A stretch of 64,000 bases of DNA. Origin: Minisyncoccota bacterium (GTDB lineage Bacteria > Patescibacteriota > Minisyncoccia > Phycocordibacterales > UBA2100). Under the pieces are notes generated by a model that saw only the letters and a program-made list of their open reading frames with translations, did no database searches and was not told where the DNA came from. The stretch spans positions 126,977-190,976 of the forward strand of contig DATJXE010000004.1 in the NCBI GenBank assembly GCA_035500505.1, in the 5' to 3' direction. Shown here piece by piece: positions 50,608-61,556 of the stretch (position 1 is its first letter; each line of letters begins with the position of its first letter). A program made the position numbers and the translations under genes.

Positions 50608-51849
50608 ATGGCCGAAAGCGACGATCTGAAGGACCGAGACCATAAAAAGCTCGGCAAAGAGCTGGACCTCTTCACCTTTTCCAACGAGGTCGGCAAAGGA
50701 CTTCCTCTCTGGACCCCTAAAGGCTCCGTCATCCGCCGAGAGCTTGAACGTTTCATCGTCGACGAGGAGATAAAGCGCGGGTATCTGCATGTGTATACGC
50801 CCGATATCGCGAAGCTCGACCTCTACAAGAAGAGCGGCCACTATCCGCACTACAAGGATTCCATGTACGCTCCCATTACTATCGACGACGAGGAATTCAT
50901 GCTGCGGCCCATGACGTGCCCGCATCATTTTGAGCTCTACCTTTCTCGCCCGCACAGCTATCGCGAACTTCCCATCCGCTACGCGGAACTTGCGAAATTG
51001 TACCGCTACGAGCAATCCGGCGAGCTCATGGGACTCCAGCGCGTCCGGACGTTCGAGCTCTCCGATGCACACATCATCTGCGCGACCGAGGAGCAGGCCG
51101 CCGAGGAGGTCTCGAAGGCGCTCGACCTTATCGAGTATGCCGCAGGCGTGTTCGGCCTGAAGCTCGGCAAGGATTTCCACTTCCGGCTCTCCTTGGGCGA
51201 TCGGAACAACACCGAGAAGTACTACAAGAACGACGCGGCATGGGAGAAGGGGGAAATGCTCCTTCGGGAGGTGTTGAAAAAGCGCGGCGAGAAGTTCGTT
51301 GAAGCGAAGGATGAGGCCGCGTTCTATGGCCCCAAGATCGACGTACAGATGAAGAACGTGAACGGCAAGGAGGACACGGCTTTCACGGTGCAATACGACT
51401 TCTGCATGCCGGACCGCTTCGACCTGACCTATGTGGCGGAAGACGGCTCAAAAAAGCGCGCCTTCGTCATCCACCGTTCTTCGATCGGCGCCATCGAACG
51501 GCTCGTCGCGTTCCTCATCGAATTCTATGCAGGTGCCTTTCCTCTTTGGCTCTCTCCGGTCCAGGTCGCGGTGCTGCCGGTATCCGAAAAACACGCGACC
51601 TACGCGCAGAGCGTCTTCGAGGAACTTAGGGCAGCGGGCATTCGCGCTGAACTTTCGGCAGACGATTCGCTCGGCAAACGCATCCGCAACACGAAACTCG
51701 AGAAAATCCCCTACTTTATAGTCGTCGGAGATCAAGAGGTCTCAGACTCCACCGTCACCGTAGAGAATCGCGCCGGGCAGAAAAAGACGGAGGGTATCGC
51801 TCCGCTCATTGAAAAACTGAAACGCGACATCGCTTCGCGCGCGATGTAA
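50608..51849 (+). CDS. thrS: threonine--tRNA ligase, catalytic + anticodon-binding domains only (413 aa)
   Basis: Class II motifs: MTCPHHFELY, KLYRYEQSGELMGLQRVRTFELSDAHII, anticodon-binding VAVLPVSE; N-terminal TGS/editing domains absent. Confidence 0.9.
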   Translation: MAESDDLKDRDHKKLGKELDLFTFSNEVGKGLPLWTPKGSVIRRELERFIVDEEIKRGYLHVYTPDIAKLDLYKKSGHYPHYKDSMYAPITIDDEEFMLRPMTCPHHFELYLSRPHSYRELPIRYAELAKLYRYEQSGELMGLQRVRTFELSDAHIICATEEQAAEEVSKALDLIEYAAGVFGLKLGKDFHFRLSLGDRNNTEKYYKNDAAWEKGEMLLREVLKKRGEKFVEAKDEAAFYGPKIDVQMKNVNGKEDTAFTVQYDFCMPDRFDLTYVAEDGSKKRAFVIHRSSIGAIERLVAFLIEFYAGAFPLWLSPVQVAVLPVSEKHATYAQSVFEELRAAGIRAELSADDSLGKRIRNTKLEKIPYFIVVGDQEVSDSTVTVENRAGQKKTEGIAPLIEKLKRDIASRAM

Positions 51850-51869
51850 CCAGAACGGCACAACAAAAA

Positions 51870-51900
51870 CTCCCGCGTCAAAAGCGGGAGTTTTTGTTTT
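51870..51900. terminator. bidirectional intrinsic terminator (CTCCCGC-GTCAAAA-GCGGGAG + TTTTTGTTTT)
   Basis: Perfect 7-bp stem between convergent thrS and 51940..53244. Confidence 0.7.
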
Positions 51901-51939
51901 CACTTTGGAGCGACGCGAGGGCGGCGGACTTTGGTGAAG

Positions 51940-53244
51940 TTAGTTGCGCGAGATGACGATGCGCGGTGCGCCGCCACTGTTCGTGATGGACATCGAGTCG
52001 CTCGTCGGGCGGTCGAAGCCCATGACCGGAAGCGCTTCGATGGTCGAGACTTTCGACGGAGCTTCGATGCGCGTTTCAACGACCGGGGCAACTTTCTTTT
52101 CGATCGTCACCGGAGTGAACGTGCGGCGAGGGATCATCGAGCCCGCGAAGAGTGCCATGCCGCCTTTGTAGTAGACCAAGAGGTAGCCGGCAGCAACCGC
52201 GAAGACCGCGAGCATCAGCCAGTACATCGTGTCACCAAGCGTGCCGAGGTCGAAGCCCGTGTACGGTATCTGCGAGAGCGAGACCGACGGATAGGCGTTG
52301 CCGACCGAAACGTAGGTGTTGCACGTCGCGCTCTGGCCGTTGTAACCGTAGACCGTGAGCACATAGCTCGTCGAGCCGTACGGGTGGACGCTCAAGCTTC
52401 CGCTCGGAGCGACGTTGCCGTAGCTCGAGAGCGTCGCCGAGGTCGCGCCGTAGCTCTGCCAGCTGAGGTAGGTGTACTGACCGTTCTGGATGGAGTTGGG
52501 CGAGGCGTAGATGGAGCACGAGACGTTCTGGTAGTTGTAGTACGTCGGATAGGTGTAATTGTAGTTGTACGGGTAGGTGTACGTCGGGTAAGTGTATTGC
52601 ACCGGGTAGTAGGTCGTCGGGACCTGCGCGATCGGGATGACCGTGGTGGTCGTGTTGGTGTTGCCGCTGTTGCTGATGTTCGTGTTGCAGCTTCCGCCCG
52701 TGCAAGTGTTGTACGTCGAGTTCGAGATAGGCGTTACGATCTGTTGCTGCTGCTGCTGCTGCTGTTGCTGTTGCTGCTGCTGTTGGACGACCGGAGCAGA
52801 GTAATAGCTGCGCGGTGCCGAGATCGCGAATGGAGTGGAATAACCGATCGAGTAGTTGTAGGTCGGGATGGAGTAGTTGTTGTAGCCGTAGCCAGTGTCT
52901 CCGTAGATCGGGTAGGTCTCCTCAGAGTACGTTACGCCGCCTTCCTCGACGCAAGTGTCGCAGCCGCTAAAATCGAGATAACCGCCGTTGTCGCCTGAGA
53001 TGTCCGCATAGCCGCCGTTGTCGCCGGAGAAGTCCAAGTATCCGCCGTTGTCGCCGGAAGTATCCACGTAGCCGCCGTTGTCGCCGGAGAAATCGAGGTA
53101 GCCGCCGTTGTCGCCGGAGAAGTCGATATACCCGCCGTCATCCTGGGCGTGCGCAAAAAGCGGAAGGGCAAGAGCGAAGCCGGAAAGGACCAAAGCTCCC
53201 GTCAAGAGGATAGAAAAGGCTTTCAAATTTAGCTGTGCGGACAT
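51940..53244 (-). CDS. type I membrane-anchored surface protein: 6x DNGGYxDxSG decapeptide repeats, poly-Q tract, Y/N-rich segment, beta domain, C-terminal TM
   Basis: Signal peptide AFSILLTGALVLSGFALALPLFAHA; repeats and low-complexity segments seen directly; TM YWLMLAVFAVAAGYLLVYY near C-terminus. Confidence 0.6.
   Translation of the reverse strand: MSAQLNLKAFSILLTGALVLSGFALALPLFAHAQDDGGYIDFSGDNGGYLDFSGDNGGYVDTSGDNGGYLDFSGDNGGYADISGDNGGYLDFSGCDTCVEEGGVTYSEETYPIYGDTGYGYNNYSIPTYNYSIGYSTPFAISAPRSYYSAPVVQQQQQQQQQQQQQQQIVTPISNSTYNTCTGGSCNTNISNSGNTNTTTTVIPIAQVPTTYYPVQYTYPTYTYPYNYNYTYPTYYNYQNVSCSIYASPNSIQNGQYTYLSWQSYGATSATLSSYGNVAPSGSLSVHPYGSTSYVLTVYGYNGQSATCNTYVSVGNAYPSVSLSQIPYTGFDLGTLGDTMYWLMLAVFAVAAGYLLVYYKGGMALFAGSMIPRRTFTPVTIEKKVAPVVETRIEAPSKVSTIEALPVMGFDRPTSDSMSITNSGGAPRIVISRN
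52741..52785 (-). repeat. CTG/TTG (CAG/CAA in coding strand) trinucleotide tract of about 15 units encoding poly-glutamine
   Basis: ctgttgctgctgctgctgctgctgttgctgttgctgctgctgttg. Confidence 0.85.
52966..53145 (-). repeat. six tandem 30-nt in-frame repeats (GCCGCCGTTGTCGCCGGAGAAGTCNAGGTA-like) encoding DNGGYxDxSG
   Basis: Visible periodicity in DNA and protein. Confidence 0.8.
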
Positions 53245-53383: not shown

Positions 53384-53800
53384 CTACTGGCGCCACGCTT
53401 CGATCGTGTCGGAGTGACGCGGCTGCGGTTGCGGCTGCGTCGACGCCGGCGCCGGGGCGTTCGCCGGCGAGTTGTCGGCGTGCGGCACATAGCCGCGATC
53501 GCACAAGACGTGGGTGCGATAGTCGCCGCGGAACTTCTGCTCGGCCGTCATCGCCATCTTGGGCCCGCCAGTCGTATTCTTGACCTTGACGAGCTTGATG
53601 GCGCGCATCGGGCAGACTTTGCCGAAGCCGGGCGTCATCATGTTGGCGGTGATGGGAGCGCCGTTCCAGTCGCCGCCGGTGATGGTCCAGGTCTGGCCTT
53701 CGAACTCGAAGGTGTTGTTGGGATTGGACTGCGCCTGGGCGGCGTTGGCGGCAGTGAGCGCGGCGATGCAGATCGCCGAAGTAAGGAGGAACTTTTTCAT
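53384..53800 (-). CDS. secreted hypothetical protein with signal peptide
   Basis: MKKFLLTSAICIAALTAANAAQAQ signal; Pro/Gln-rich C-terminus. Confidence 0.5.
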   Translation of the reverse strand: MKKFLLTSAICIAALTAANAAQAQSNPNNTFEFEGQTWTITGGDWNGAPITANMMTPGFGKVCPMRAIKLVKVKNTTGGPKMAMTAEQKFRGDYRTHVLCDRGYVPHADNSPANAPAPASTQPQPQPRHSDTIEAWRQ

Positions 53801-54011
53801 CGGATTTCCCTTTGCAAAGGTCCCTCGGCTCACATCGAAGCTGATGTGCGAGGGCTGTATGGGCGCGAATTCTCGTGCACAGACAGCCCTCGCAAAGTAG
53901 ACGTTGAATCAAAGAACAACGGTTGAAAGCCGAACCAGCAGATTAGGATAATCCCTTGGCTTTGGCTATTAACCGCGACATTATATCACCCACAACTAGA
54001 TTGTCAAGTAT

Positions 54012-54050
54012 GTAAAACGACCCGGGCTATAGAGGCTCCGGGCCGTTTTC
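54012..54050 (-). terminator. candidate intrinsic terminator for 54072..54809
   Basis: Hairpin GGCCCGG...CCGGGTC with flanking T-rich runs on both strands. Confidence 0.35.
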
Positions 54051-54071
54051 TGCACGAAGCAGAATTAGACT

Positions 54072-54809
54072 TCAGCAGTCGGGCTCAATGGCGTAAATGG
54101 GCGCGCCATTGCTCATTTCGCCGACCTTGGTTCTGCTCTTGACTAAAGAGCAATCTTTTTCACCATTGCCAGCAATGTGCCCATCACCGGCATCGGCCGC
54201 CTTGTTGAACGTGAACCTGACTCCATTGCCGAGTGTCGCCATGGCGAGCACCGCAATGAGAAGTATCACGAGGATCACGATGACAACGCTCGCAGCCGAG
54301 CCGGGAACCGGCGGGGCAACGGGCGCAGGGATCGTCGGAGGCAGGGGTGCAGGCGGTGCGATTGCTCGCGCAGCCGTCACTTGCGTCCACGCCGGCCCAT
54401 GCTTGTGCGATTGGAACACCAGCAATGAGAGCCAGCTGAATACCAGGAGTACGATCAGTAAGTCCCTGGCATGGGGCACAGCGAGCAGATCAACGGTCTT
54501 GGGATCGTTTTGTTGCAGGCCGAGGAATACCCAGCCAGCAGTGAGCGTAATGACCAAGCACGCCGTTGCCGAAGCAAGGTAGCTCAACCAGTAAAGCGGC
54601 ATGTTGCCACCTTCGCCGAGTGCGGCATTCAGCAGTTCCAACGCGATATAGACGATCGCGATGTACATGCCATCCTGCACGAGTGAGATCGTCAGGCCAT
54701 AAGCGTTGATGTCCTTCAGACCGATGACGTAGTAGGTAGCCGCAGCCGCAGCCGTCGCGAAGACGACAACAGCGTCGAGCCACGTGATTGTAACGCGCAG
54801 CGGGTTCAT
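54072..54809 (-). CDS. polytopic membrane hypothetical protein
   Basis: AAGGAAG RBS before ATG 54809; 6+ TM helices; Pro/Ala-rich segment PPAPLPPTIPAPVAPPVPG. Confidence 0.5.
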   Translation of the reverse strand: MNPLRVTITWLDAVVVFATAAAAATYYVIGLKDINAYGLTISLVQDGMYIAIVYIALELLNAALGEGGNMPLYWLSYLASATACLVITLTAGWVFLGLQQNDPKTVDLLAVPHARDLLIVLLVFSWLSLLVFQSHKHGPAWTQVTAARAIAPPAPLPPTIPAPVAPPVPGSAASVVIVILVILLIAVLAMATLGNGVRFTFNKAADAGDGHIAGNGEKDCSLVKSRTKVGEMSNGAPIYAIEPDC

Positions 54810-54852
54810 GGTACTTCCTTTCGTTACCGTTGGAGTTGTTGGATTCGGGGTT

Positions 54853-55206
54853 TCAGGTTCGGGTTCGTCCGACGTGCTTGTTGCATATCCGACGAACCAG
54901 GCGAAAGGTACCGCCGATGCCAAGCATGATCAGCTTGACGGCGGCCACCGCTTCCGAAAAGAGTAATATCCGCTCGAAGTTGATGAACCTCGAGAATGTT
55001 TCGAAACGATCACCCCAATCCGGAGCGAACGTTTCGATCAGACTTCCGACGTGTTTGACCAGACCAAGATTGAGGTCCAGTCCATCGTTCAGCAATTTCG
55101 GCTTGAGGATAAATACAAGCACGAAACAAATTGCCGTAACAGTGAAGGCGCCCCCCTTGAAGAGGTGGTGCCTGCCTTGCTCCCACATGTATCGGTGCCA
55201 CCTCAT
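54853..55206 (-). CDS. membrane hypothetical protein (117 aa)
   Basis: Hydrophobic helices; immediately upstream of 54072..54809. Confidence 0.4.
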   Translation of the reverse strand: MRWHRYMWEQGRHHLFKGGAFTVTAICFVLVFILKPKLLNDGLDLNLGLVKHVGSLIETFAPDWGDRFETFSRFINFERILLFSEAVAAVKLIMLGIGGTFRLVRRICNKHVGRTRT

Positions 55207-55307
55207 GGCCCCTCCTTGATTTTGAATGAGCTCGCCTGCGCCGAAGCGCAGAGCGAACGAGCATAGTATAGTAAAAGTGGCCCCCTGTCAAGGGTTACCG
55301 GCTTTCT

Positions 55308-56519
55308 CTAGAGACTCCGGATCCGACTTGCGACAGTGTTAACATCGGAGCGCGTATACGCAGTGCCGAGCAACGAAGAAATATATCGCAAGATGGCATT
55401 CCAAAAGCCCCGTTCTCCTTGCGTGTTCATTTCGGCGTGATACTTGTCGTCCAACCAATGTTGCGCAAGTTCTTCGCTCACACCCGGATCGCTTCTATGC
55501 GCCCAGCGCGGGTCGGTCGAGAGAGTACGCAACGAGTTGTCAGAAGCCGCTGTGTCTTTCATGAGCTTCTCCATTTTCGTTTGTGCGTTTTTCAAACCGT
55601 CGTAGGCTTGCTTCGTTTCAATCGGCGCATTCGGCTGAAGCGCCTCGCGAGTGAGTACTGACCCAGCGACACCCTCCTGGAGGAATACTGTGCGCAGCGC
55701 GTTGCTGATCTCCGAAGTGTAGCGAAGCCTGTCGGCACCGTGTTTTCGATAGTTGTCGACGATAGCGGAAATACGGCCCAAATTCTGCTGAAAGCCAATC
55801 TGGTTTATGCCGGATTTTAGGTTCGACAACATTGAGTCTCTCCCCTGCATGCGCGCAGCAGCAGCCGATGTCAAAAGTTCTTTCCAGTCATCCCGGTCGA
55901 TCGCTTGCATGACAGTGCCTTTGTCGATGCCATATTTTTCCGCGGTGGAGAACAGCTCGCTCAGTGCTGTCCAATCCGATTTCGCGAAATTACGAGCTCC
56001 AGCCAAGCTGTTGACGATGGCGGCGTATCGTCCTGGGTCCTTGTACGCGTAAACCTTCAGCGCGCGGCCAACTCTGTCTTTTGCGCTCGAATCATCGAGG
56101 GCGAGAATACCGGCTATCTCCGATTCTCCGGGGTGGAGGGCTACCACTCGTGCGATGGTTTCTATGTCTTCGTCCGAGACGAACTTCTCTGCGGTCTTTA
56201 CTGCATCAAGGCCTCGCTGATACTTCCCCATGAGCGAAGGAAGTTCCTTTTGCTCTTCGAGCGAAAGTTCGACGGTCGGCGACGCGTCCGGGCTCTGCGC
56301 GATCAAGTTCAGTTTATTCGAGAGCGACATCAAACGCTGTTGACGCTCGACATCCGGGCGTACTGGCCCCGCAGCCGAAGTGATAGCTGATATGTTTCTA
56401 AGTTCCTCTTCAGCGATCGCCGCGAAGTTGAGTGATTTTTCTTTATCGTTTAAAAGATCTTTTATACCCAACGTTTTAGGCGCTTCCCGTACCGCGCTCC
56501 CGATGCGTTCCATCTTCAT
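55308..56519 (-). CDS. hypothetical protein (403 aa), predominantly helical
   Basis: Long ORF, no recognisable motif. Confidence 0.5.
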   Translation of the reverse strand: MKMERIGSAVREAPKTLGIKDLLNDKEKSLNFAAIAEEELRNISAITSAAGPVRPDVERQQRLMSLSNKLNLIAQSPDASPTVELSLEEQKELPSLMGKYQRGLDAVKTAEKFVSDEDIETIARVVALHPGESEIAGILALDDSSAKDRVGRALKVYAYKDPGRYAAIVNSLAGARNFAKSDWTALSELFSTAEKYGIDKGTVMQAIDRDDWKELLTSAAAARMQGRDSMLSNLKSGINQIGFQQNLGRISAIVDNYRKHGADRLRYTSEISNALRTVFLQEGVAGSVLTREALQPNAPIETKQAYDGLKNAQTKMEKLMKDTAASDNSLRTLSTDPRWAHRSDPGVSEELAQHWLDDKYHAEMNTQGERGFWNAILRYISSLLGTAYTRSDVNTVASRIRSL

Positions 56520-56561
56520 ACGGGCATGATAGCAACGAAGACGATACGCGCAAACGCCATA

Positions 56562-57095
56562 TCACCTGGCCCAGGGCGGACGAGTTTGCGACCGCAATGG
56601 GGAGCGAACTTTGCTCAAAACCTCGATATCGGCCTTGATCTTTTCTGCTGCTGCAGGAGATTTCAACTCGTCGATTCTTTTGATGAGTGGTGCAGGGTTT
56701 ACACCAGTGCCTTCAATCCTTTTCAACTCTCCTCGCAGCTCCGCTTGCGTTTGCACTCGGTCTTCTTCTTTTTCAAATGGCGGACCTTGAGGTGCCTCCT
56801 CAGGTGAAGCCGCGGTGGGCGCTTCCGCGGGAATTTCTGGTGCAACTTCGCCAGGAGCGGCGGGCATTTCGGCAATGGTTATGCTGGAACTGTATTTTGG
56901 GTGACCTGGAGCAGGCTCGCTCGTCGGGTCGAGCTGTTGGCGATCGCGTTCGTAGTCGTTTGCGTCTTCAAGTACGACGACGCGGCGGTTCTCGTCCAAG
57001 TACCAGTGCTTCCCCGTACGCGGATCCAGGCTTAACGAAATTTCTGTCGGAGAATTCCGGGGGCTCTCATTCTTTGGCTCAGATTCAATACTCAT
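56562..57095 (-). CDS. hypothetical Pro/Glu/Ala-rich protein
   Basis: Low-complexity segment PAAPGEVAPEIPAEAPTAASPEEAPQGPP. Confidence 0.4.
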   Translation of the reverse strand: MSIESEPKNESPRNSPTEISLSLDPRTGKHWYLDENRRVVVLEDANDYERDRQQLDPTSEPAPGHPKYSSSITIAEMPAAPGEVAPEIPAEAPTAASPEEAPQGPPFEKEEDRVQTQAELRGELKRIEGTGVNPAPLIKRIDELKSPAAAEKIKADIEVLSKVRSPLRSQTRPPWAR

Positions 57096-57184
57096 GGCTC
57101 TTATCATAACAGTGCATAAAAAAAATGCATGGCGGGTCCGAGGACTCCGCCATGCGAGGGTGACCGTTTGCCAGGCGGTAAAGA

Positions 57185-58042
57185 TCAGGCGGCCAGCTGT
57201 TCCGGAAGCTTCAACGGCTGTTCGAGCGAGAGACGCTCGAACCTCTTGAACATAGTGGGAAGAGCGCTCGAGGGCATCTCGTGCACTTCATGCCCCACTT
57301 TCGGCTTGCCGGTAAGCATCCACGCCTTGCCAAGGTGACGAACGAGAACGGCTTCGCTGTCCTTGCGCGAGAACCTGACACGGTAGAGACGGCTCGTCCA
57401 CAGGAACACGCCGCAGAAGATGTCGCCGACCCGCTCCTTCATCAGGGTCGCCATCTTCCTCTTCGAAAGTTTTGTGCCGTTCACGTCACCAAGGGGGAGC
57501 TTGTCTTCCTCCGTGATGTCCTCGGTACTTGCCGTATCGAGGAGCGTTGTCGCCCCACTATAAGCGACCGCACCGGAGATGAACATGTTGGCCTGGATGA
57601 GCTGCTTCGTTTCTTCGGTCGCGCCTTCCGGATGGCCCGACCAGATCTCGTAGTAGACCTCATTGTCTCTTTCCAACGGCATGGCACGGATGATTCCGGG
57701 CGCCATCTCGCGGAAAGTCGTGAAGTCAATGTATTGACGGGTCTGCCGTTTCTTCGATTGCTCCTCGGTGAACGTGAAGTTACGCACGGGGATGGTCTTG
57801 AAGTCGTCGCTTGGCTGGGTCGGGATAACGAGTCCGCCCGGCGACATCTTGAACCCCGGCCCAACATCTTCCATCGGAAGGTGTTGCCCGGGACCAAAGC
57901 CGATGCCCGCGACGACTTCCGTTTCGGTCTTCTCGGCAGTGCTGGAATAGCGCATTCCGCCGAAAAAGATACGGTCGTCGAGCTTGCCTTGGACCATGCG
58001 GGGACGACGGCCGGGGATGAAACGTGCTGCGTTGCATTCCAT
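57185..58042 (-). CDS. hypothetical protein (285 aa)
   Basis: AAGGAAGG RBS before ATG 58042; no recognisable motif. Confidence 0.5.
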   Translation of the reverse strand: MECNAARFIPGRRPRMVQGKLDDRIFFGGMRYSSTAEKTETEVVAGIGFGPGQHLPMEDVGPGFKMSPGGLVIPTQPSDDFKTIPVRNFTFTEEQSKKRQTRQYIDFTTFREMAPGIIRAMPLERDNEVYYEIWSGHPEGATEETKQLIQANMFISGAVAYSGATTLLDTASTEDITEEDKLPLGDVNGTKLSKRKMATLMKERVGDIFCGVFLWTSRLYRVRFSRKDSEAVLVRHLGKAWMLTGKPKVGHEVHEMPSSALPTMFKRFERLSLEQPLKLPEQLAA

Positions 58043-58211
58043 GACATACCTTCCTTTCCTATGGGTATGTGTTGCGAACTGGCGGATGCCAGAGTGCTCT
58101 CTGCACTGATGCGCAGTGTAGCATCAAATTACCCCTCTGTCAATAAATTCTAAAATAAAAAGGGCGCCGCGAACTTCGCGGCGCCCTGTCTTCGTTGAAC
58201 GGGGTCTCAAT

Positions 58212-58700
58212 TCAGCTGACCGGAACGGCCGTCCCGCCCAACACGCGAGTGTTGACGATGAGCATGATAAGGATGCTGCCGATCAATGAGCCGAGCATGG
58301 CGAAGAAGAGCACGCCGGCGATCGTCGCTCGGTCCCCGATTATGCCGAGATGAATTCGGTCGTACCAGACGATCAGCATCTCGGCGACAAGCGCCACCGA
58401 AATGAGCAAATCGAACACGACCGAGACCCAGCGATCCTTACGCACGACGGTGAGCGCGGCCGTGATCGGTTCGACGACTAGGTAGATCGTGACGATCCAG
58501 AGCACCGTGACCAGCGATGGTTCGTTGTCCGCGATCCAGAACTGGTAGATGATCCACGCGGCGAATAACACGCCGAGGAGCGAACTACACATGTTGGCCC
58601 CGATATGCATTCGGCGGTGGTGCAAGATTTCCCCGGTACGATGCAAAATGGTCTCGCGCGGAATTTGCGGGCTCGATTGAGGAACGGACGTATTGGACAT
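58212..58700 (-). CDS. membrane hypothetical protein (4-5 TM)
   Basis: GGAGG RBS before ATG 58700; hydrophobic helices. Confidence 0.5.
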   Translation of the reverse strand: MSNTSVPQSSPQIPRETILHRTGEILHHRRMHIGANMCSSLLGVLFAAWIIYQFWIADNEPSLVTVLWIVTIYLVVEPITAALTVVRKDRWVSVVFDLLISVALVAEMLIVWYDRIHLGIIGDRATIAGVLFFAMLGSLIGSILIMLIVNTRVLGGTAVPVS

Positions 58701-58769
58701 GGGTTCCTCCCTGTTGTCCGTTGGATACACTGGCGCAAGTAGTACTCCAAAATGAGTTCGCGTCAAGAA

Positions 58770-59279: not shown

Positions 59280-59816
59280 TTAGTACTTCCCTATCTTCAC
59301 GGGTGTGCCGATATCGACGGGAACGCCGATGGTGGTCGCGTAGGCGATGGTCACGGGTTGCGCGATGGTGGTTGGATAGCCGATGGAAACCGGTTGGGCG
59401 ATCTGCACAGGCTGCGCGATGGTGACGGGTTGCGCGATCTGTTTTGCGACCGCGATCTGCTTTCCGACGCCAATCTGTTTCGGTTGGCCGATGGTGACCG
59501 GCTGCGCTATCTGTTTGGGTTGCGCGATGGTCTTCGGCTGCGCGATCTGCTTAGGGACCCCGATCTGGGTCGGCTCTGCAATGGGGACGGCGTAGCCGAG
59601 AGGTACCGCCGTTGCGATGGGGGTCGCTTCGGCGATAGGAGCGGCGTAGGCGATCGGAGATGCATAGGCGATGGGCGAAGCTTCCGCGATCGGGGAGGCG
59701 AAAGCGATCGGGACAGCGTTCGCGATGGAGCAGCCGCAATCTTGCGCGTACGTGAGTGAGGCGCTCGCGGCGACGGCGATGATGAGTCCAGCGGTTATTT
59801 TTGTTTTCATGTGCAT
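59280..59816 (-). CDS. secreted protein composed of about 24 tandem hexapeptide repeats (x-x-I-[AG]-x-[AP])
   Basis: Signal peptide LIIAVAASASLTYAQDCGC; repeats SPIAEA/SPIAYA/KQIAQP/VTIAQP etc. Confidence 0.6.
   Translation of the reverse strand: MHMKTKITAGLIIAVAASASLTYAQDCGCSIANAVPIAFASPIAEASPIAYASPIAYAAPIAEATPIATAVPLGYAVPIAEPTQIGVPKQIAQPKTIAQPKQIAQPVTIGQPKQIGVGKQIAVAKQIAQPVTIAQPVQIAQPVSIGYPTTIAQPVTIAYATTIGVPVDIGTPVKIGKY
59290..59720 (-). repeat. 18-nt tandem repeat array (GCGATNGGNNNNGCNTAN-like on plus strand) underlying the hexapeptide repeats
   Basis: Visible 18-nt periodicity with gcgatggtg/gcgatctg variants. Confidence 0.8.
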
Positions 59817-59818
59817 AT

Positions 59819-60475
59819 TTATTTTGAAACGACGCCGACGAAGTGCGCCGTGAGGATGAAGCGCGCGCTGGTGCCGGTGAGCGTGTCGCAGGTCACGAGC
59901 GTGAGCTTCTGGCCTTGTGTCGGAGAGAGGTCGATGGAAGCCCCCGTTTGCGTGTCGGCTTTGACGACGGAGTCAACGCTGTAGAGATAGGCCTTGCCGT
60001 TCTGTCCATCGATCTCGATGGAAGCGCCCGGGTCAACATTGGGAATTTGGTTGAACGCCTGGAACATTTTGTTGGTGACGATGGGCAAGTGCGAGGAGTG
60101 CGCGAAGATGAGCACGTTGCCTTGCACACCGAGCTCTGCCGAGCTGACGTAGCGCGCGGGACCTTTGTTGAGGAGTGCGTCGAGCGCGTCGACGTCGGTC
60201 GTCGAAGGATTTTGTACCGGCAGGTCGATACCGACGGACGGGATCTTTATCTCGGCCGGAAGCGTACCTGCGGACGTGCTGTCGGAAACTGATGTGTCGC
60301 CGAGCTGAGGCAGAGATGAAAGCGCGACCGAGGGATCGTTGCATGTGTTGTCTATTTGGCACGGCACGAAGCCAACGGAGTCGGCCGCGCTCAACGTGAG
60401 CGCGAACATGACGACCGAGGTCGCAAGGAAAACAGCGGCCGGGGGCTTGGAATTTCGCGTAGATTCGGGGTTCAT
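59819..60475 (-). CDS. sortase-family transpeptidase
   Basis: N-terminal TM; catalytic-region motifs VLIFAHSSH (His) and LTLVTCD (Cys, TLxTC) plus downstream Arg. Confidence 0.7.
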   Translation of the reverse strand: MNPESTRNSKPPAAVFLATSVVMFALTLSAADSVGFVPCQIDNTCNDPSVALSSLPQLGDTSVSDSTSAGTLPAEIKIPSVGIDLPVQNPSTTDVDALDALLNKGPARYVSSAELGVQGNVLIFAHSSHLPIVTNKMFQAFNQIPNVDPGASIEIDGQNGKAYLYSVDSVVKADTQTGASIDLSPTQGQKLTLVTCDTLTGTSARFILTAHFVGVVSK

Positions 60476-60524: not shown

Positions 60525-61556
60525 TTGACAACTGGCGGTATGCGTGAGAGGATTCTGGCCACTATGGCGGAGGTAGAAGTATCCAAGACAACGACCACCG
60601 AAACGCGCAACGAAGGCCGCACGTCCAGTCTCTTGACCGACATCCTCACTATCGTCGGTTTTGCCATCCTTTTCATCATCATCATTTGGGGCTTCGTGCA
60701 TCTCGTCTCGCTTATCTACACTTCCCTCTCTTCGAAGTTCTCCAATACGGCGCCTTCGATAGAGGTCACTGCGCCCGCGCAAGCAACATCGGGGCAGCCG
60801 ATGACCATCTCGTGGACCTATTCGCCGAGCGTGCAGGGCAGCTACGCATTTTTGTACCAATGCGAGAACGGTCTCTCGTTCGACACGAAAGGTGCGACCT
60901 CCAGCGTCGCCGTTCCCTGCGGCGAAGCGTATACGGTTGGCAACGTGAATAATTCCCTCACGCTCACGCCTCTGCTTTCGAGCGCTTCCACCGCGACCGA
61001 CACTGTTTCCATCGTCTTTATTCCGAGCGGGACCGGTTCACAGGCACAGGGCGACGCGACCGTCGCGATCAGCGCGGCAGCCAAATCTGCTCCCGCAAAA
61101 ACGACCCCGGCGAAAACGACTTCCTCGGCGACCTACACGGCTCCGCAATATTCCGGACCCACGGACCTCTCCGTGCGCATCATCTCCGGCAACGTGGACG
61201 CGAGCGGTGCGGGTGTCGTTACGTTCGACATTGCCAACATCGGCGGCTCCGCTTCTGGCAGCTACTACTTCACGGCCCAGCTGCCGACCGCGCAGCCCTA
61301 CCCTTACCAATCGCCGCTCCAAGCCTCGCTTGAACCGGGCGGGCACGTGACGAGCACGCTTCGCTTCACCAGCGTACAATCCGGCGGCGGCACGTTCTCC
61401 GTCAGTATCCAAACGAACGACGCCAACAACGCCGACAACTACGCCTCGATGCAGCTCACCGCGCCGTACAACTACAACAACTATAATTACAACTACAGCT
61501 ACCCGTACAACTACCAATCTTCGCCGTACATCGTGTACCCGACGTATACGTACTAA
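60525..61556 (+). CDS. N-terminally anchored surface protein with two beta domains and an Asn/Tyr-rich C-terminus
   Basis: TM ILTIVGFAILFIIIIWGFVHLV; domain PMTISWTYSP...AFLYQC similar to the 51940..53244 protein; tail YNYNNYNYNYSYPYNYQSSPYIVYPTYTY. Confidence 0.5.
   Translation: MTTGGMRERILATMAEVEVSKTTTTETRNEGRTSSLLTDILTIVGFAILFIIIIWGFVHLVSLIYTSLSSKFSNTAPSIEVTAPAQATSGQPMTISWTYSPSVQGSYAFLYQCENGLSFDTKGATSSVAVPCGEAYTVGNVNNSLTLTPLLSSASTATDTVSIVFIPSGTGSQAQGDATVAISAAAKSAPAKTTPAKTTSSATYTAPQYSGPTDLSVRIISGNVDASGAGVVTFDIANIGGSASGSYYFTAQLPTAQPYPYQSPLQASLEPGGHVTSTLRFTSVQSGGGTFSVSIQTNDANNADNYASMQLTAPYNYNNYNYNYSYPYNYQSSPYIVYPTYTY

Follow-up and report, generated by a model that had tools for sequence, protein, structure and literature searches.

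How does an ultra-small bacterium build its outermost layer, and how are the proteins of that layer held in place? This question is raised by a gene encoding a 434-residue protein in a 64,000-nucleotide stretch of contig DATJXE010000004.1 (the window hereafter), which comes from an uncultured Kaiserbacteria-like (Parcubacteria/Paceibacterota) bacterium. Parcubacteria are uncultured, ultra-small, and probably attached to other cells, and their surface coat is little known. The gene occupies positions 51,940 to 53,244 of the reverse strand, to which all coordinates within the protein refer, and opens with an ATG. Scans of the protein against Pfam and NCBIfam returned no family, and the hits that did appear (Med3, Atrophin) are low-complexity noise. 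A sequence-only reading had described a secreted, C-terminally anchored surface protein made of several low-complexity systems, with a signal peptide, six decapeptide repeats, a poly-Q tract, an Asn/Thr-rich stretch, a Tyr-rich segment, a beta domain, a transmembrane helix, and a cytoplasmic tail. All of these features are present, and we arrive at the same overall description. That reading missed an LPXTG-like IPYTG box, a conserved gene cluster containing a sortase, a hairpin motif at the extreme C terminus, and the near-absence of lysine from the ectodomain. On the evidence assembled here, we consider it probable that the protein is processed by a sortase and anchored to the cell wall. The chief alternative, an uncleaved membrane protein, agrees with this reading in placing a C-terminally anchored envelope protein at the cell surface.

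The IPYTG box and a conserved sortase cluster

The most conserved part of the protein is found toward its C terminus. Alignment with homologs identifies an LPXTG-like box, LSQIPYTGFDLG (residues 323–334; 52,243 to 52,278), situated 8 residues before the transmembrane helix. The family consensus is L-[ST]-Q-[IV]-P-Y-T-G-[FL]-D-x-G, which here reads L-S-Q-I-P-Y-T-G-F-D. Leu323, Gln325, Ile326, Pro327, Tyr328, Thr329, and Gly330 are invariant in all 32 aligned sequences, the PYTG core is found in each of 120 homologs, and residues 326–330 (IPYTG) fit the [ILV]PxTG pattern. The helix that follows (about residues 340–359) has its core at residues 343–359 (52,168 to 52,218), as judged from hydrophobicity, charge distribution, and an AlphaFold2 (AF2) model in which the helix spans residues 335–358. 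The core is uncharged and is followed by Lys360; across the family the helix gives way to YY[KR]GG. The 8-residue gap between PYTG and the helix is the usual spacing for sorting signals. In the AF2 model the box itself is an extended linker with a predicted local distance difference test score (pLDDT) below 50.

Beyond the helix lies a cytoplasmic tail of pI 10.4 (residues 360–434; 51,943 to 52,167) with conserved AP and LPV boxes. It ends in a predicted hairpin, DSM...G.APRIVISRN (residues 416–434; 51,943 to 51,999), which is defined by the alignment and modeled with a pLDDT of about 70–80. The consensus for this terminus is D-[SA]-M-x6-8-G-x-A-P-R-I-V-I-x-R-x, in which Asp416, Met418, and Arg433 are invariant and Pro427, Arg428, and Ile429 are conserved in at least 90% of sequences. 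A second AF2 model, of the C-terminal module only, agrees with the model built from the 32-sequence alignment, in which the Ig-like domain scores about 95 and the terminal hairpin about 70. In 1.4 Mb of related loci, all 86 open reading frames (ORFs) that end in the DSM...PRIVIxR motif carry a PxTG within their last 260 residues.

A search of 5.8 billion proteins recovered 227 homologs at E ≤ 1e-3, the best of them 57% identical at 4.9e-128. Wherever a source is named, the label is Kaiserbacteria, Paceibacterota, Pacebacteria, or Parcubacteria, and the annotation is "hypothetical" throughout. When a single genome of each species was scanned, 99 loci emerged, every one in Patescibacteria. Judged by these sequence comparisons, the protein belongs to a large, lineage-specific Parcubacteria family that is conserved chiefly in its C-terminal module. 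Loci hold one to four members, with two to four in tandem at 17 of 83. We found no description of an IPYTG family in the searchable literature on sortases and LPXTG proteins in Parcubacteria and Patescibacteria; sortases as such are frequent in the Candidate Phyla Radiation (CPR) (PMC6744442).

The tail varies more widely than the box, and a profile search of 1.84 billion representative sequences revealed three tail types. Relatives P0017, P0152, P0153, P0186, P0189, and P0190 have short basic tails behind the PYTG box and helix. In P0122, P0136, P0161, P0175, P0188, P0206, P0258, and others, the same module is followed by long cytoplasmic regions that contain conserved, unannotated domains; these proteins contain ...IENRAHA..VLLSxDA... 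and end in ...EDGWVVLNKERILSLL, and Pfam found no match in the alternative long tails. A separate group of proteins with arrays of Ig-like domains ends in ...AIDGTY..EAAVKMAIMKA and has no PYTG in the last 200 residues, some of its members carrying another juxtamembrane motif instead.

A candidate processing enzyme is encoded on the same strand, 6.6 kb upstream of the gene. The membrane-anchored protein at 59,819 to 60,475 matches the Pfam sortase family (PF04203, 2.3e-17), and its F.HSS, LT..TCD, and Arg motifs are kept in 48 orthologs. By its Pfam match it is a sortase, divergent and unclassified. Among 80 species-level loci, 38 extend 9 kb or more upstream of the target, and 36 of these have a sortase there on the same strand, 2.6–9.8 kb away. 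The gene order gyrB, Ig protein, sortase, hexapeptide protein, variable island, target, thrS, dnaE is shared by six loci (L001–L006), with thrS and dnaE convergent and downstream of the target gene. At another locus (L090), the gene of a sortase 54% identical to that in the window precedes, at a distance of 155 nt, the gene of the short-tailed IPYTG protein P0153; next comes a gene whose product has an acidic/aromatic N terminus. The short-tailed P0017 fills the same slot beside thrS. Across those 1.4 Mb, modules that combine xPxT[GASN] with a transmembrane helix number 139, and 106 of them read [ILVT]PYTG. Because the others look like noise, the PYTG family is the sole candidate substrate near the sortase.

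Adjacency to thrS extends beyond these clusters, with a PYTG-module gene convergent with thrS in 73 of 80 loci. It is found also for the distant relative P0161 (L089, 10,001 to 13,024), which has a different tail and no nearby sortase.

An acidic, lysine-free ectodomain

The N terminus has the layout of a signal peptide (residues 1–33; 53,146 to 53,244), with Lys8, a hydrophobic stretch at residues 9–30, and predicted cleavage between ...FAHA and QDD. We called it from sequence rules for the n-, h-, and c-regions together with conservation of AxA before Q[DE] in orthologs, at least 90% of which, as aligned, have Ala33; AF2 places a helix at residues 7–25 inside it. Six in-register decamers of the form D[DN]GGYxDxSG follow (residues 35–94; 52,963 to 53,142), seen both in translation and by Tandem Repeats Finder, which reports a period of 30 nt, 5.4 copies, 84% matches, and a period-60 super-repeat. 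The array contains 13 Asp/Glu and 18 Gly in 61 residues and no basic residue.

Between the array and the folded domain, each low-complexity segment is tied to boxes that recur across the family. Residues 95–153 (52,786 to 52,962) comprise a CDTC / E-G-G-V-x-Y-S box, recognized by ortholog alignment, and a Tyr/Gly/Ser-rich region that ends in a conserved P-F-A-I-S-A-P box (P-F-x-I-S-A-P in the family), with Pro144 nearly invariant. The poly-Q tract (Q15; residues 154–168; 52,741 to 52,785) is encoded by CAG with four CAA interruptions, and its position is taken in orthologs by a Q-run or a P/Q-rich linker. An Asn/Thr-rich segment (residues 169–205; 52,630 to 52,740) holds a conserved N-T-C-T-x-x-S-C-N-T box (C-x4-C), and Asn187 and Asn195 are nearly invariant in the family alignment. 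It is followed by a spacer rich in Tyr, Pro, Asn, and Thr (residues 206–239; 52,528 to 52,629), delimited by composition and alignment, with 13 Tyr in 34 residues. The spacer includes YTYPTYTYPYNYNYTYPTYYNY and opens with a conserved Y-P-V-Q-Y box, in which Gln216 is kept in at least 90% of sequences and Tyr217 is invariant; its length is highly variable among orthologs. Given these family-wide boxes, the poly-Q tract and Tyr-rich spacer are ordinary linkers whose position is conserved in the family.

In the AF2 model from the 32-sequence alignment, residues 30–224 have a pLDDT below 50 and no secondary structure, so that an N-terminal ectodomain region of roughly 190 residues is predicted to be disordered and strongly anionic. 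The ectodomain as a whole (residues 34–326) has no Lys, a single Arg, a net charge of about −18, and a pI of 4.05. The bias extends to the ectodomains of 106 relatives, which average 0.42% Lys and 9.7% Tyr, 60 of them being without any Lys; the tails are of ordinary composition. Avoidance of proteases and avoidance of sortase nucleophiles are both possibilities for this lack of lysine.

The one confidently modeled part of the ectodomain is an Ig-like/PKD-like beta-sandwich of the seven-to-eight-strand kind (residues 240–316; 52,297 to 52,527; pLDDT 92–96), in which the Cys pair Cys243 and Cys308 is invariant and none of the 77 residues is charged. Foldseek against the PDB pairs it with SoxY, PKD, and Ig domains at a probability of 1.0 and TM-scores of 0.5–0.6 normalized to the targets; none of these matches reaches E ≤ 0.001, and they are generic sandwiches without a functional lead. 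The Pfam Ig, PKD, and Big models do not match the protein itself; among paralogs, P0017 reaches PF22352 (K319L-like_PKD). The profile search of the 1.84 billion representatives found the Ig-like domain in 14,868 proteins and was dominated by this widespread domain, so that the anchor-module family is not cleanly delimited by it. The number of Ig-like domains varies. The thrS-adjacent positional orthologs P0010, P0048, and P0017 have several in tandem, and in two metagenome contigs (L091, Ga0070711_100026188; L092, Ga0207663_10008095), whose proteins include a Q18 tract, a Tyr/Pro-rich spacer runs directly into IPYTG. These two suggest that the Ig pedestal is dispensable in some lineages.

The tandem array is the part that changes fastest. 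N-terminal arrays occur in 73 of 121 family members, mostly with periods of 7–13 residues, 10 being the commonest, and their median composition is 19% Asp/Glu and 22% aromatic with no Lys or Arg. The decamer G-D-N-[GL]-G-Y-x-D-[TS]-x is recognizable in a subset; others are built of units unrelated to it, such as GSYDPYA, GFDYGPYGGGDV, and YDGSDQPFY. Since orthologs thus use unrelated acidic, aromatic, and Gly-containing units of like composition, it is the composition of the array that is kept and not its sequence. The nearest relative occurs in two versions, one with five decamers (P0001) and one with seven (L093), which are identical at 425 of 425 aligned residues and differ solely by a 20-residue indel, in which the 60 nt encoding two decamers are duplicated exactly. 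Sequence comparison thus supports natural variation in the copy number of the array, with the reservation that short-read assemblies may collapse repeats. A search of metagenome contigs with degenerate codons did not recover the same species; a second, for DNGGY arrays, returned four relatives. The sequence-only reading had taken the gene to be length-hypervariable. The two versions of the relative bear this out in part; ongoing slippage at this locus is not borne out, given diverged DNA copies and a poly-Q tract interrupted by CAA.

That divergence also bears on whether the gene and its repeats are real. Pairwise identity among the six DNA units is only 77%, and the three that yield one and the same peptide, DNGGYLDFSG, are separated by 4–8 synonymous changes. 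Units that differ in this way are not an assembly artifact, and the same differences mark the array as old and maintained by selection. Concern could arise from a long antisense ORF on the forward strand (51,931 to 52,998) that overlaps the gene and from the tendency of repeats to be misassembled. Hundreds of homologs share a common architecture, the Ig-like domain is modeled with high confidence, and the gene has expression signals of its own, which together establish 51,940 to 53,244 as a real protein-coding gene. A candidate promoter, TTGACA-16-TATAAT (53,322 to 53,295), found by consensus scan, matches the sigma-70 consensus at 12 of 12 positions about 50 nt 5' of the ATG, where 0.4 such sites are expected in shuffled sequence. 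A predicted strong intrinsic terminator at 51,862 to 51,898, with a 15-bp stem, 7 G-C pairs, and a T-run, is bidirectional and common to the gene and the convergent thrS. The antisense ORF is a shadow of the gene, and a spurious or artifactual origin is effectively refuted.

Two structural proposals in the sequence-only reading concern the low-complexity region, and neither agrees well with the family. The first saw in the decamer array a possible calcium-binding, beta-roll-like (RTX-type) module. The array is indeed acidic, Gly-rich, and regular, and would attract cations non-specifically; such binding by a region of charge −18 is plausible from its composition. The period is 10 rather than 9, though, the GGxGxDxUx register is absent, Pfam finds no match, and AF2 predicts no strands in residues 35–94 (pLDDT 33–43, a low-confidence model and so weak evidence). 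Orthologs, moreover, swap in unrelated units of period 7–13, which argues against any specific fold of the array. Calcium loops of the EF-hand and DxDxDG kinds, read directly against the decamer, fit in neither register. We regard an RTX-type module as very improbable. The second proposal held that the Q/N/Y-rich segments are prion-like or amyloid-prone and unusual for bacteria; developed further, it would make residues 154–239 a functional amyloid for cell cohesion or matrix. The succession of Q15, an Asn/Thr-rich stretch, and 13 Tyr in 34 residues is what such a domain might look like, and similar Tyr/Asn-rich tails on a neighboring envelope protein and its orthologs suggest a shared envelope-related role. 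The classical criterion for a prion-like segment is at least 30 Gln/Asn in 80 residues; here the maximum is 26 (residues 154–233), and 11 of 120 homologs reach 30. In many orthologs a Pro-rich P/Q linker, which disfavors amyloid, replaces the poly-Q, the spacer is as variable in length as linkers typically are, and a Pfam scan linked the protein neither to curli nor to any other amyloid family. With such linkers ordinary across the family and a Tyr-rich tail in a neighbor, the claim of an unusual prion-like region was overstated, and self-assembly into amyloid seems improbable to us.

Proposed sortase processing and its alternatives

The arrangement that we favor, in which a sortase anchors the protein to the wall, would work as follows. 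After export, the transmembrane helix would hold the precursor, and the IPYTG box would be offered to the membrane-bound product of the cluster's sortase gene. The VSLSQIPYTGFDLG peptide is a candidate substrate of this enzyme, with cleavage after Thr: the cut would fall between Thr329 and Gly330, and residues 34–329 would be joined to the cell wall. The Ig-like domain would then form a wall-proximal pedestal, and the low-complexity region a hydrated, negatively charged, Tyr-rich brush that might contact partners, surfaces, or cations, or shield the cell. Repeat unit and copy number of the brush would turn over fast while its composition is kept. The conserved tail would most likely tether either the uncut precursor or the stub that stays in the membrane after the cut to a partner in the cytoplasm, and so position or retain it; of all steps of the scheme this is the least supported.

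Several observations weigh against this arrangement. In a classical sorting signal only a few basic residues come after the helix; here the helix is followed by Lys360, Arg373, and Arg374 within 75 further residues that include conserved boxes and an invariant hairpin, which is not the short basic tail of a sorting signal. Other subfamilies place whole cytoplasmic domains behind the PYTG box and helix, and the long-tailed P0161 has no sortase within 10 kb; an uncleaved bitopic protein would account for these long-tailed subfamilies no less well. In extent and in invariance, the box goes beyond what sortases usually need for recognition, with Tyr fixed at X and flanking L-S-Q and F-D-x-G. NCBIfam models for LPXTG anchors gave no match at E ≤ 10, and the sortase falls below the cut-offs of all NCBIfam classes (A–F, GN), the best being class E with 37 bits against 160. 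Because enzyme and target sit inside a long synteny block (gyrB ... thrS, dnaE), part of their co-occurrence may be inherited. Our literature search found no experimental work on the lineage.

These points lead to the chief alternative, an uncleaved type I membrane protein in which the PYTG box is a structural or binding element beside the membrane and the tail hairpin couples the brush to a cytoplasmic partner, the whole acting as anchor, organizer, or sensor. A tail of this length with invariant Asp416, Met418, and Arg433 and a predicted hairpin, the confinement of the tail motif to PxTG-bearing proteins, the large, differing cytoplasmic domains that follow the module in other CPR proteins, the absence of a sortase near P0161, and the over-conservation of the box for a sorting motif are all consistent with it. 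Yet the invariant residues of the box are those that match [ILV]PxTG, at the correct spacing from the helix and its basic residues; the short-tailed relatives resemble textbook sortase substrates, one of them directly beside a sortase; and the cluster offers a sortase in 36 of 38 loci and no conserved gene for a cytoplasmic partner. We therefore see the uncleaved protein as a possible but less likely alternative to sortase anchoring. A combination of the two, in which the PYTG box and helix are a CPR-wide device, so that the sortase wall-anchors the brush or Ig array and leaves behind a membrane stub whose tail signals or positions, strikes us as unlikely. That tail would be the DSM...PRIVIxR hairpin here and a whole domain in other subfamilies, and, if true, the precursor would give two products, a kind not described for sortase systems. 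We also considered sortase-dependent pilus assembly and rejected it, the ectodomain having no Lys and the cluster no second LPXTG-type protein.

Neighboring genes and known counterparts

The genes around the sortase include further envelope candidates. Directly after it, at 59,280 to 59,816 of the reverse strand, lies a gene for a secreted hexapeptide-repeat protein of 178 residues that consists almost wholly of about 20 repeats of [QA]P[VK]xI[AG], a position kept in at least six loci. Its matches to models of acyltransferase left-handed beta-helices are weak and far below cut-offs, and a secreted hexapeptide-repeat protein without an enzyme core is unusual. Divergent from the sortase, at 60,525 to 61,556 of the forward strand, is a conserved cluster member encoding an N-terminally anchored Ig/CARDB-like protein, whose CARDB match is faint or weak in orthologs. 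Its extracellular C terminus is rich in Tyr, Asn, and Pro (...PYNYNNYNYNYSYPYNYQSSPYIVYPTYTY), and each of the six orthologs examined likewise closes on a Tyr-rich stretch whose last residue is Tyr. From this protein and its six orthologs we conclude that a Tyr-rich composition recurs in envelope proteins of the lineage.

Between the sortase and hexapeptide genes and the target lies a variable island of six unrelated hypothetical genes (53,384 to 58,766, reverse strand) with no useful Pfam match. Island genes are not homologous between orthologous loci, and the gene directly upstream of the target always encodes a small secreted protein, again non-homologous between genomes. This suggests a fast-turnover set of envelope or secreted proteins. 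On the other side, thrS (50,608 to 51,849, forward strand) encodes 413 residues with the class II core and anticodon domain but without the N-terminal tRNA_SAD editing region; its orthologs in L002, L006, L087, and L089 have 579–585 residues and include tRNA_SAD, and both forms occur among close relatives.

The closest known kind of protein is that of the LPXTG proteins of Gram-positive bacteria (sortase A substrates, MSCRAMM/Sdr-type). Shared features are a signal peptide, an Ig-like domain, acidic repeats of variable copy number, an [ILV]PxTG before a hydrophobic helix and basic residues, and a sortase gene in the genome. The Parcubacteria protein differs from these in its near-invariant 12-residue box with Tyr at X, in its 75-residue tail with a hairpin, and in repeats that are distal (N-terminal) rather than wall-spanning; its ectodomain is essentially Lys-free, it has no homology to named families, and its sortase stands outside the class A–F models. 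Dedicated sortase systems such as the class GN "marine" sortase (TIGR03784) are similar in that the enzyme is clustered with one target family, one to four targets per locus, whose recognition box is kept more strictly than that of housekeeping systems. Unlike in those systems, enzyme and target usually lie on either side of a variable island, and the sortase of the window scores 20.7 bits against a 158-bit cut-off for class GN, from which target architecture and lineage differ as well.

Other resemblances are more partial. The decamer array is like RTX beta-rolls in being tandem, Gly/Asp-rich, and extracellular, and unlike them in its period of 10 instead of 9, in the lack of a consensus or Pfam match and of a predicted beta-roll, and in its unconserved unit. 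Prion-like or FUS-like [G/S]Y[G/S] domains and fungal wall adhesins are comparable in that a segment rich in Gly, Ser, Tyr, Gln, and Asn, charge-poor or acidic, with predicted disorder and a variable number of repeats, is carried by a surface protein; the likeness is one of composition only, drawn from general knowledge, and the protein here is bacterial and extracellular, has sub-threshold Gln/Asn, and shows no homology to them. The fold of residues 240–316 resembles PKD/Ig domains (PF22352) and the SoxY-like sandwich, from which it is set apart by the lack of a Pfam match in the query, the absence of charged residues, and the invariant Cys pair.

Overall, a Lys-free, charge-poor Ig-like domain and Tyr-rich spacers make an unusual compositional design, for which the chemistry of the wall or the avoidance of proteases may be the reason. 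The family also poses the question of why a conserved cytoplasmic tail follows a sortase-type signal. IPYTG offers a concrete candidate substrate motif for the divergent sortases of the CPR. Given its highly variable outer part, the family may well be a major surface determinant of the Kaiserbacteria lineage, a role for which we also note its one to four copies per locus, the strong consensus promoter of this gene, and a conserved genome position.

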